Below, in pieces: positions 168-25,407 of a stretch of 64,000 nucleotides of DNA (the first letter of the stretch is position 1; every line of letters starts with the position of its first letter). The position numbers were made by a program, and so were the translations under genes. The stretch comes from Candidatus Methanomethylicia archaeon (lineage in GTDB: Archaea > Thermoproteota > Methanomethylicia > CALHIW01), in the NCBI GenBank assembly GCA_038845975.1, contig JAWBQF010000010.1:1-64000 (forward strand). Direction: 5' to 3'. The notes beneath the pieces are model-generated. The model was given only the letters and a program-made list of their open reading frames with translations, was not told where the DNA came from and ran no database searches.

Positions 168-261
168 TAAAGATGTTAGATAAAATTTATTTAAGTATAC
201 TATTAAGATAAATAGGGGACACCATAAAATATTAGAACAAAAATTCAATTGCAAGATTTAG

Positions 262-374
262 TGGGGCCGCGGGGATTTGAACCCCGGACCATGCGGGCCC
301 TAGCTAATATAAGTTCAAGCCGCACATTCTAAACCAAGCTGAACTACGGCTTAGTGTACAGTTAACTGTACCCC
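262..374 (-). tRNA. tRNA-Pro(UGG) with two non-canonical introns: 3/4 (351-371, 21 nt) and 35/36 (300-315, 16 nt)
   Basis: Spliced form is GGG|GCCG UA GUUC AGCUUGGUUUA GAAU G UGCGG CUUG|GGC CCGCA UGGUC CGGGG UUCAAAU CCCCG CGGCCCC A. Intron 1 has a full BHB (GG-GGUG-GGG / CACU-AAG-CC). Intron 2 has a central helix GGCU/AGCU. Short variable arm; CCA not encoded. Confidence 0.85.
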
Positions 375-22889: not shown

Positions 22890-23108
22890 ATGCGAGGGCA
22901 TTTAGCCTCAAGAAAGAGTAAAAGTATAAAATTTAAATGTAGTAAGTGTGGAAGAAAACTTACAAGAAACGACTTAATTAAATTCAGCTCAAATTTAAAA
23001 CCATTATACTCACTTAATAATGGTGGGGAATATAAACCATTATGTGTTACATGTTATCATGAACTCATAGGCTTATATGTAACTCGACAATTAAAAACAG
23101 CTAAATGA
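22890..23108 (+). CDS. Small zinc-finger protein
   Basis: KCSKCGR ... PLCVTCY paired CxxC motifs. Confidence 0.65.
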   Translation: MRGHLASRKSKSIKFKCSKCGRKLTRNDLIKFSSNLKPLYSLNNGGEYKPLCVTCYHELIGLYVTRQLKTAK

Positions 23109-23229: not shown

Positions 23230-23281
23230 TCAGAAAACGGCTTTAAATCATCTTATAGTCTACTCACCTCCTTTTCATCAT
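23230..23281 (-). ncRNA. Candidate C/D box sRNA with guide complementary to the 16S rRNA 3' tail
   Basis: Minus strand reads ATGATGA AAAGGAGGTGAG TAGA CTAT AAGATGA TTTAAAGCCGTTTT CTGA; perfect C and D boxes; 52 nt; TATA-like TTTTAAG about 25 nt upstream. Confidence 0.6.
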
Positions 23282-23363
23282 CCCATATAGAAATTAGGGA
23301 AAACTTAAAAGCTTTATGTGATTATCATGGTTTAAAACCTTAAATAATACTGGTGGAAAGCTG

Positions 23364-25250
23364 TTGAACATTGATGTATTGATCATAACTGAAAAACCAT
23401 CAGTTGCAAGAGTATTTGCTGAAATACTCTCTAAGAGTAAATATCGAATTATGTATAGTCATAACATTGAATACTATGTTTTTAATTTAAATAGTGAAGT
23501 ATGGGCTTCAATAGGTCTTAAAGGACATATTTTAAACTACGATTTTCCAAGTAAGTTTAATAAATGGACAGAAGTAAATCCACGTGATCTATTCTTCATA
23601 GACCCACTGCACGTCATCGAGAAAGGATGCTATAGATATGTTGAAGTCCTAAAAGATATTGGTAGAAACATACGTTACGCTCTACTAGCTCTTGATGCTG
23701 ATTCTGAAGGGGAAAGTATAGCGTTTGAAGTTCTTGAAATATTGAAGCAAATCAATAAGTACTTTGAAGCTAAAAGATTATGGTTTTCAGCAGTTACAGA
23801 AAGGGATATTTTGCATGCATTAAACAATCCTCAAGAGCCTAATAGACTTCTAGCTGAGAAATGCTTTACAAGAATGATTATTGACTTAACAATAGGATCA
23901 GCATTTACAAGACTTCTTACATTAAGCGTTAGAAAAACACTTCGTAACGCTCTTCCTAAAGGACATTTTCTAAGCTTTGGACCATGTCAAACGCCTACAT
24001 TATGGTTTGTAGTTCAAAGGGAAATTCAAAGAGAGAAATTTAAAGCTAGAAAGTTCTATAGGATTACATGTACGCTTAAAGCTAATGGATTAGTATTTGA
24101 AGCTGAACATTATAAAGGAAAAATAGATAGTAAAGAGGAAGCTGAGAAAATATATAGTAAAATTAAGAATGCATTGAAAGCCTATACTAGAAGCTTTAAA
24201 TCAAACATAAAAACTAAGAATCCTCCAACACCATTAAACACCATAGAGTTTGAAAGTAGAGTAAGTAAATTTCTAAACATTAGATCTAAAACAGCCCTAG
24301 ACATAGCAGAGAAACTCTACCAGTATGGATATATTAGCTATCCTAGAACAGAAACCGAAATATATGGACCAACAATAAACTTAAAAGAAATCGTTCAAAT
24401 GCTTTCAAAAAATATAAACTACAGTAAGTATGCTGAAAACCTAATTCTTAAAGGATTTAAGCCTACGAGAGGGGGGAGAGATGATAAAGCCCATCCGCCA
24501 ATACATCCAACAAGAATAGCTTATGAACAAGTTATTACTGAAGAATTTTCAAGAAATGCTTGGAGAATATATGACTTCATAGCTAGACATTTCCTAGCAA
24601 CACTAAGCAAACCAGCTTTAATTGAATCTCAACGTTTAGAGCTGGAAATTGAAGAGGAGAAATTTATAGCTGAAGGATTAAAAATTATTGAGGAAAACTA
24701 TCTCGAAATATACTTCTACGAGAAAATCAGTGAGAAAAAAATACCAAAACTAAACACTGGAGAGGAAGTTGAAGTATTGAAAATAGAATTGAAAGAAGGA
24801 GAAACATCACCACCACCATATCTCTCAGAGGCAGAACTGATAAAGCTAATGGAAGCTAAAGGAATTGGAACTGATGCAACAATTCAAGACCACATATATA
24901 CAAACATTAAGAGAGGATACTTCTACATTGAAAATAAACGATGTATACCAACACCTTTAGGCATACAGTTAATAAAGGCATTAGACAGCATAATACCTGA
25001 AGCCATTAGACCGGAAGTAAGAGCCTTTATTGAAACACAGATATTACAAGTTGCAAAGGGAATTAAGACAAGAAGCGAAGTAGTGGAGTTTGCTAGAAAA
25101 ACATTTCTAAACTACTATGATAGACTTGAAAAGAACATAAGTGAAATATCGAAAGCTCTAGCTCCACTAGTAAGGAAAAGCATACTTCTTACAAATATTA
25201 AGAGGAAAACTAGAAAATTTAAACGGGCCCGAGGGGATTTGAACCCCTGA
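23364..25250 (+). CDS. topA: Type IA DNA topoisomerase (archaeal topo I/III)
   Basis: ITEKPSVA, GLKGHI, DADSEGE, SFGPCQTPTL, GYISYPRTET, AHPPIHPT, GIGTDAT. Confidence 0.95.
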   Translation: MNIDVLIITEKPSVARVFAEILSKSKYRIMYSHNIEYYVFNLNSEVWASIGLKGHILNYDFPSKFNKWTEVNPRDLFFIDPLHVIEKGCYRYVEVLKDIGRNIRYALLALDADSEGESIAFEVLEILKQINKYFEAKRLWFSAVTERDILHALNNPQEPNRLLAEKCFTRMIIDLTIGSAFTRLLTLSVRKTLRNALPKGHFLSFGPCQTPTLWFVVQREIQREKFKARKFYRITCTLKANGLVFEAEHYKGKIDSKEEAEKIYSKIKNALKAYTRSFKSNIKTKNPPTPLNTIEFESRVSKFLNIRSKTALDIAEKLYQYGYISYPRTETEIYGPTINLKEIVQMLSKNINYSKYAENLILKGFKPTRGGRDDKAHPPIHPTRIAYEQVITEEFSRNAWRIYDFIARHFLATLSKPALIESQRLELEIEEEKFIAEGLKIIEENYLEIYFYEKISEKKIPKLNTGEEVEVLKIELKEGETSPPPYLSEAELIKLMEAKGIGTDATIQDHIYTNIKRGYFYIENKRCIPTPLGIQLIKALDSIIPEAIRPEVRAFIETQILQVAKGIKTRSEVVEFARKTFLNYYDRLEKNISEISKALAPLVRKSILLTNIKRKTRKFKRARGDLNP

Positions 25251-25319
25251 CCACCGGCTTTCTTCCTCATCCGCTAGCCAACCTGAGGCCGGCGCGCTTC
25301 CATACTACGCTACGGGCCC
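25224..25319 (-). tRNA. tRNA-Arg, most likely CCG, with two 11-nt introns (25274-25284 at 34/35; 25260-25270 at 37/38)
   Basis: GGGCCCG acceptor stem, A20, G73, short variable arm. The 29-nt anticodon-loop region gives an Arg anticodon only if two segments are removed. The first intron has helix GGCC/GGCU with 3-nt bulges. Confidence 0.75.
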
Positions 25320-25407
25320 AATATATTATCGCTTAAATACTTAAAAGCATTTAGAAAAGTTAATACATTTAGAGTTAAATTTATTAGTTCTTATATTGTG
25401 ATGACTT

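Follow-up and report, generated by a model that had tools for sequence, protein, structure and literature searches.

The window, meaning the whole 64,000-nucleotide stretch of DNA that was analysed, comes from an uncultivated Methanomethylicia archaeon of a hot spring and very probably carries a stand-alone C/D box sRNA gene on its minus strand. Judging from the complementarity of its D' guide, we put the probability that this RNA directs 2'-O-methylation of C1535 (E. coli numbering), in 16S rRNA's anti-Shine-Dalgarno (anti-SD) tail, at about 0.6. The predicted Cm1535 would add to the few sugar methylations known from the anti-SD tail of archaea. The gene sits in a 255-nt gap separating two plus-strand genes and reads, from position 23281 down to 23230, AUGAUGA / AAAGGAGGUGAG / UAGA / CUAUA / AGAUGA / UUUAAAGCCGUUUU / CUGA, which amounts to 52 nt from the C box to the D box. 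Its parts and neighbors are listed below in order of position; the copies referred to are the six orthologous ones compared further on.

22890..23108, plus strand: ORF of 72 aa, Cys-rich and convergent with the sRNA; best Pfam match DUF7685, sub-threshold (E = 0.0076)
23230..23281, minus strand: candidate C/D box sRNA gene, 52 nt, recognized from sequence and conservation
23230..23233, minus strand: D box CUGA, perfect; identical in 6/6 copies, with similarity stopping right after it
23234..23247, minus strand: D guide UUUAAAGCCGUUUU, 14 nt; its core UAAAGCCGUUU is identical in the copies
23248..23253, minus strand: C' box AGAUGA, which is UGAUGA with the first base altered; identical in 6/6 copies
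23254..23258, minus strand: D'-C' loop CUAUA, the sole internal segment varying among the copies
23259..23262, minus strand: D' box UAGA, degenerate, with the GA of CUGA retained; identical in 6/6 copies
23263..23274, minus strand: D' guide AAAGGAGGUGAG, 12 nt; identical in 6/6 copies
23275..23281, minus strand: C box AUGAUGA, a perfect RUGAUGA; identical in 6/6 copies
23304..23317 (−36 to −23), minus strand: putative BRE/TATA promoter AUAAAGCUUUUAAG, identical where present in the six copies
23364..25250, plus strand: gene of a type IA DNA topoisomerase in divergent orientation to the sRNA, with Pfam matches to Topoisom_bac (E = 4.4e-111) and to Toprim (E = 2.1e-09)

The sequence-only reading had described this locus as a C/D box RNA candidate. 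Its boxes, guides, and length of 52 nt were confirmed on the minus strand, and the anatomy, conservation, and promoter are those of an archaeal C/D box sRNA. Generic members of this class, represented by the Pyrococcus sR families of Rfam and the 489 sRNAs of Dennis et al. (2015; PMC4644070), share with it a length of ~50 to 60 nt, the C/D'/C'/D order, a 12-nt guide (the D' guide in the window RNA), the N+5 rule, and an own promoter or gene-proximal location. UAGA is the sole xxGA sequence that lies the canonical 12 nt from the C box; GUGA within the guide was rejected as a D' box, as it lies 7 nt from the C box and leaves no room for a guide. Guide spacers in archaeal C/D box sRNAs are usually 12 ± 1 nt long. 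The C-D' spacer of the present RNA is 12 nt, while the C'-D spacer is 14 nt, and thus outside this range, if C' is AGAUGA, or 11 nt if C' is the overlapping UGAUUU at 23250-23245; we infer that AGAUGA is the C' box. Both D' UAGA and C' AGAUGA retain their GA steps, and their other positions would give U-A and G-U where U-U and G-C are standard in the predicted k-loop. These two boxes are fixed in the copies, and the loop between them is variable.

The 52-nt RNA has no stable fold (minimum free energy of −7 kcal/mol; z = +1.0), in keeping with guides that are expected to be open. Beside the C and D boxes, no terminal stem that was convincing or consistent across the aligned copies was found. 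Rfam gave only below-threshold matches at the locus, all to Pyrococcus sR families and at 10 to 17 bits against gathering cut-offs of 39 to 55 (sR20, 16.8 versus 44; sR11, 14.8 versus 39; sR52, 13.3 versus 50; sR36, 10.2 versus 55), and the RNA is outside every curated Rfam family. At gathering thresholds, the Rfam search over the window returned two tRNAs and nothing else. As had been noted earlier, no ORF follows the Shine-Dalgarno (SD)-like string of the guide: the AUG in the C' box opens only AUG AUU UAA (23251-23243), that is, two codons, and no minus-strand ORF of at least 30 aa starts at this AUG.

To weigh the box motifs against chance, we scanned the 2.77-Mb genome for perfect C and D boxes with spacers of 10 to 14 nt, counted C'/D' mismatches, and used three block-shuffled genomes as a control. 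The scan yielded 2, 1, 3, 7, and 11 candidates with 0, 1, 2, 3, and 4 mismatches, respectively. The shuffled genomes gave no candidates with up to two mismatches, compared to six in the real genome, and 2, 1, and 3 candidates with three mismatches, compared to seven. The window sRNA belongs to the three-mismatch class, and the case from box motifs alone is moderate.

Conservation was evaluated in related genomes and metagenomes. A DNA search of 41 related genomes located the region in two, namely its own genome (G000; 76 contigs, 2.77 Mb, 93% complete) and the congener G001, and four further copies (L105, L117, L120, and L131) came from scanning metagenome contigs with a pattern. The N-terminal coding sequence of the topoisomerase also aligns in these four metagenome copies, so that synteny is kept. 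In the six-way alignment, 46 of the 52 sRNA columns are invariant, compared to 8 of 52 over an equal length immediately downstream; in the promoter stretch of 35 nt upstream, 24 of 35 columns are invariant. All four boxes, the entire D' guide, and D guide positions 2 to 12 are unchanged in every copy. The substitutions seen are U to C at D guide position 13 upstream of the D box in G001 and U to C at position 1, adjoining the D box, in L117, and the D'-C' loop, CUAUA in the other five copies, is replaced in L117 by UCCA, which is 1 nt shorter. Because conservation tracks the box-to-box unit and collapses directly after CUGA, chance is a very unlikely account of the locus, and a genuine C/D sRNA gene is highly likely. 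The boxes had been proposed from a single sequence and proved identical in 6/6 copies; the decayed 5' end of a gene, which had been named as a finding that would overturn the proposal, is excluded, since conservation ends after CUGA and no ORF follows.

A BRE/TATA promoter of its own probably drives the sRNA, and transcription would start no more than a few bases from the C box. An upstream TATA-like motif had been claimed earlier. The nearest one, CUAUAU at −9 to −4 and probably the motif intended, was rejected as a TATA box because it is too near the C box; what stands is the conserved element AUAAAGCUUUUAAG further upstream, within which TTTTAA occupies −29 to −24 from the first C-box base. 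Of the genome's six strongest sRNA candidates, five have a TTTAAA-like box upstream, at about −25 to −34, and none was evident upstream of the sixth, the candidate on contig C15.

In the largest survey of archaeal guides (PMC4644070), the criterion for a target was a run of at least nine consecutive Watson-Crick pairs to rRNA or tRNA that covers N+5. Positions 2 to 10 upstream of the D' box (GGAGGUGA plus one A) are complementary to UCACCUCCU of 16S rRNA over nine consecutive Watson-Crick base pairs. This stretch corresponds to 16S positions 1532 to 1540 in E. coli numbering, which we cross-checked against the 16S fragments named in PMC5389701. The N+5 partner is C1535, the C after A1534 and the first C of CCUCC, just where the sequence-only reading had placed it (on the first C of ACCUCC), and the N+5 pair is G-C. 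The 16S ends used here are those of class relatives within Methanomethylicia rather than of the host itself: 23 of 23 end in GGAUCACCUCCU and carry UCACCUCCU, and the proposed complementarity of the guide to the anti-SD tail held up, with 9 bp in all 23. The base that follows CCUCCU is A in 18 relatives and U (as UA) in 5; UU at this place, which pairing past the mature end (UCACCUCCUUU) needs, occurs in 0 of the 23. Three 5' A's and the 3' G of the D' guide are unpaired with the relatives' tail, and all 12 guide bases are invariant nonetheless. The reason may be that the copies have diverged little, or that the guide has a target to which it is more fully complementary.

We looked for the host's own 16S rRNA in assemblies and sequencing runs. 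Rfam gave no match to 16S, 23S, or 5S rRNA in the own assembly, despite its 93% completeness, no SSU match in the congener G001, and no match to RNase P RNA in the own genome; string searches for the 16S tail in the own genome matched at non-rRNA sites only. The runs containing the DNA are hot-spring metagenomes. Contigs of four runs were compared with the 16S end, ITS, and 23S start of a relative. The two single-organism runs, X2 and X10, had no contigs matching these regions; the two hot-spring metagenomes contained many archaeal 16S ends, which are not attributable to the host organism, and no variants in the last 12 bases of 16S were present among the matches listed for them. In one hot-spring metagenome (run X9, L003:3002), some 16S-bearing contigs continue with TT after CCUCCU (three contigs, agreement 0.71, not attributable to the host). 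A TT at this place would lengthen the pairing with the 5' A's of the sRNA to 11 bp. If C1535 targeting is true, the 16S tail of the genus would contain UCACCUCC and end in ...GAUCACCUCCU.

A second tail-directed sRNA is encoded in the same genome outside the window, at C1:174072-174119 (plus strand), where it is intergenic and has a similar promoter; its G001 ortholog is at C101:2436-2483. This companion reads AUGAUGA / AAGAGGUGAUCG / CGGA / ACU / AGAUGA / AGAAAUCUAAUU / CUGA. Positions 2 to 10 of its D' guide pair with GAUCACCUC, and C1533, two bases upstream of C1535, is selected. In the G001 ortholog, guide and D' box are GGGAGGUGAUCA / CAGA; the core GAGGUGAUC is kept, only the non-pairing flanks differ, and the pairing is lengthened.

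To search for the family, we used the pattern TGATGA-N(1-5)-GAGGTGA-N(22-45)-CTGA. It was found in 4 of the 62 genomes of the class and, in a 401-genome sample of the phylum, in 41 genomes (48 rows), compared to 3 matches in 2 genomes for the reversed-pattern control. The 32 stored loci were parsed into 33 rows. Sixteen of these rows have a pairing run of at least 9 and select C1533, typically with xGGAGGUGAUCU followed by CUGA, and three more select C1533 with a run of 8. C1535 is selected, among the 33 parsed rows from the 401 phylum genomes, only by the window sRNA and its G001 ortholog, i.e., in this genus. The C1533 guide family, as predicted from these pairings, is widespread in the phylum. 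Within Additional file 1 of PMC4644070, where the guide strings of the 489 sRNAs were the part searched, tail-complementary guides occur in Neq sR13, Neq sR20, Tte sR141, and Iho sR305. By our own reading, and not by any statement of the papers themselves, Tte sR141 and Iho sR305 (guide GGGAGGUGAUCA) would be of the C1533 register. Cm1533 has been measured in Ignicoccus hospitalis, where it was ascribed to a 'presently unknown sRNA' (PMC5389701). The C1533-register sRNAs (C1:174072-174119, Tte sR141, Iho sR305, and the phylum copies) share with the window sRNA the machinery and the target region, and in most copies the D' guide directly follows the C box, as it does in the window. They pair over 9 to 11 bp with GAUCACCUC(CU), whereas the window sRNA is shifted by 2 nt, to C1535.

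The C1535 register was then sought in a 185,579-species collection with a stricter pattern, GGAGGTGAG immediately before xxGA. Of 23 places found, 21 are bacterial by title and chance-like, one is the G001 ortholog, and one is in a Thermoplasmata MAG. The last of these, at L080:600-655 (plus strand), reads GUGAUGA / CUAGGAGGUGAG / CUGA / GCAUUUGCAA / UGAUGA / UGGUUUCAGCAUG / CUGA and has fully canonical boxes; its D' guide ends in GGAGGUGAG directly before the box, with CUGA as D' and UGAUGA as C'. Metagenome contigs L101 and L114 carry variants of the Thermoplasmata sRNA, and L111 carries another archaeal-looking sRNA of the C1535 register (CAAGGAGGUGAG / AUGA), which is preceded by a TATA-like box. 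In a string search of the 489 sRNAs of PMC4644070, GGAGGTGAG occurred four times, never in the C1535 register. The register is rare and, as far as the predicted guides tell, arose more than once. Its recurrence supports C1535 as a real target and makes the degenerate UAGA credible as a D' box. Together with the companion C1533 guide, the presence of both registers in unrelated archaea suggests that the 16S tail is a regular C/D sRNP target in thermophiles and not a peculiarity of Nanoarchaeum.

There is an independent precedent for such a guide. Seistrup et al. (2017; PMC5389701) reported, using MALDI-MS and RiboMeth-seq, that Neq sR13 pairs with 16S positions 1531 to 1540 and guides Am1534, and N. 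equitans also has Gm1530 (sR20) and Um1528 (sR25). For anti-SD guides of the Neq sR13 type, measurements of the predicted methyl group exist only for N. equitans Am1534 and I. hospitalis Cm1533. The novelty implied earlier for an anti-SD guide was therefore overstated, since sRNA-guided 2'-O-methylation within the anti-SD was shown in that 2017 study. The window sRNA is very probably a new example of a known principle, that of the anti-SD tail guides of two other heat-loving archaea. Like the window sRNA, Neq sR13 is a C/D box RNA one of whose guides is complementary to the tail of 16S, and that guide contains GGAGGUGA. The tail guide, however, adjoins the terminal D box in Neq sR13 and is the D' guide in the window sRNA; the target is A1534 (measured) in the former and C1535 (predicted) in the latter; the partner guide is directed to A1408 in helix 44 in the former, whereas that of the window sRNA has no match in helix 44 or in the relatives' rRNA. 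Outside the boxes and the guide core, the two RNAs have no homology. In the literature searched, neither Cm1535 nor any C/D sRNA from Methanomethylicia is reported, and among these texts PMC5389701 alone treats anti-SD methylation.

The modification machinery is encoded in the genome: fibrillarin at C1:9584-10264 (E = 1.6e-96), Nop5 in the adjacent gene at C1:10403-11080 (E = 2.5e-68), and an L7Ae family protein at C28:8146-8421 (E = 4.5e-18). With these three genes present, and by analogy with the family, the RNA would be bound by L7Ae at its C/D k-turn and its C'/D' k-loop and would recruit Nop5 and fibrillarin. The D' guide would pair with the single-stranded 16S 3' tail over UCACCUCCU (1532-1540), and fibrillarin, following the N+5 rule, would 2'-O-methylate C1535; the companion sRNA at C1:174072-174119 would add Cm1533. 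The two methyl groups could stiffen and chemically protect the exposed tail and stabilize the SD/anti-SD helix at hot-spring temperature, and the sRNA might also hold the tail during late 30S maturation. This raises the question of whether anti-SD methylation alters SD-dependent initiation or 16S 3'-end maturation. A bolder extension, which we regard as a long shot, is that the two tail-directed sRNAs (C1533 and C1535) form a late RNA checkpoint, in which 3'-end cleavage and SD recognition at pre-16S positions 1530 to 1540 would be blocked until release and the double methylation would tune the competition between SD-led and leaderless initiation at high temperature.

A genuine C/D sRNA could also bind the tail without productive methylation, acting at the 3' end of pre-16S as a chaperone or placeholder, or have its main target elsewhere; we consider this unlikely. 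As a chaperone, it would bridge the tail to the site of the D guide or delay 3'-end cleavage and translation entry, as proposed for Neq sR13, which has been suggested to time the folding of helices 44 and 45 (PMC5389701). With another main target, the D' guide would serve an RNA carrying the full 12-nt complement CUCACCUCCUUU, which would fit the invariance of all 12 guide bases when only 9 pair with the relatives' tail; however, this complement has no exact occurrence in the own genome besides the gene, and seven with one mismatch. Double guides make up roughly half of archaeal sRNAs, and a chaperone function has been suggested for these (PMC4644070). A second target is indeed suggested here. 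The 11-nt core of the D guide, UAAAGCCGUUU (positions 2 to 12 upstream of the D box), is unchanged in the copies, and because of this invariance the D guide is expected to have a target of its own. The core implies the target AAACGGCUUUA, with the C of AAAAC in AAAACGGCUUUA as the N+5 partner.

Searches for this second target covered rRNA, tRNA, SRP RNA, and the own genome. The site AAAACGGCUUUAAA was absent from the relatives' rRNA operons and their 1.5-kb flanks, and no convincing site appeared in the relatives' 32 rRNA loci, ITS and 1.5-kb flanks included, whether or not G-U pairs were allowed; the best matches were 10/12 and lay at non-conserved places. Besides the gene itself, the own genome has no exact copy of the 12-mer target; it has 37 one-mismatch sites, none of them on the SRP RNA contig. 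No D-guide site was found on that contig or in the 26 tRNAs found by ARAGORN. On the side of methylation, the D' guide duplex has a standard G-C pair at N+5 and the nine consecutive base pairs of the published criterion, and nothing speaks against modification; moreover, the comparable N. equitans duplex is productive, as Am1534 was measured (PMC5389701).

The sequence-only reading had also suggested that the RNA masks the anti-SD and favors leaderless translation. In such a scheme, the sRNP or the free RNA would act as a regulator, an SD mimic on the anti-SD of the mature 30S subunit that shifts initiation to leaderless mRNAs. Apart from the complementarity itself, we found no support for this idea, and we judge it very unlikely. 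The genome does seem to use both initiation modes: GAGGUGA is followed within 3 to 10 nt by an ORF of at least 80 aa in 44 of 302 cases, compared to 11 of 292 for a scrambled control, so that SD sequences seem to be used for some genes, and the topoisomerase gene looks leaderless. The locus, however, is without any sign of regulation, and a pair of sRNAs whose registers differ by exactly 2 nt, each with a C at N+5, fits a methylation design better than masking. Furthermore, full-text literature searches returned no report of an archaeal C/D sRNA masking the anti-SD.

That the locus is no RNA gene at all, but either box-like motifs lying by chance around an SD string or what is left of the leader of a vanished gene, is extremely unlikely: SD-like strings are common (GGAGGTGA occurs 89 times in the genome), three-mismatch box sets arise one to three times per shuffled genome, and an AUG lies 11 nt after the SD-like string, but the ORF it opens has just two codons, a remnant should decay evenly instead of keeping 46/52 columns inside the unit versus 8/52 after it with an indel in the loop only, the promoter is conserved and correctly spaced, and unrelated sRNAs of the same guide register have fully canonical boxes.

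Several further observations were made in the window and beyond. On the same contig beyond the window, C10:71276-71329 (plus strand) is a strong C/D sRNA candidate with one box mismatch (GUGAUGA ... CUGA ... UGAGGA ... CUGA) and a TTTAAA box upstream; a comparison with the relatives' rRNA resolved no target for it. The SRP RNA of the genome is at C50:8470-8787, and the GC content is about 30 to 39%. The topoisomerase ORF starts at a TTG located 26 nt past a TTTAAAA box (window positions 23330-23366, plus strand), and its mRNA looks leaderless from this spacing. The promoters of the sRNA and the topoisomerase are back to back within ~60 nt. Two tRNA genes of the window are long, one of 93 nt at 261-353 (minus strand) and one of 98 nt at 25223-25320 (minus strand), and, given their lengths, both probably carry introns. 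ARAGORN assigned them the anticodons Ser-tga and Pro-agg, both of which introns may distort. The tRNA at 25223-25320 extends into the final codons of the topoisomerase ORF, whose listed end is 25250.
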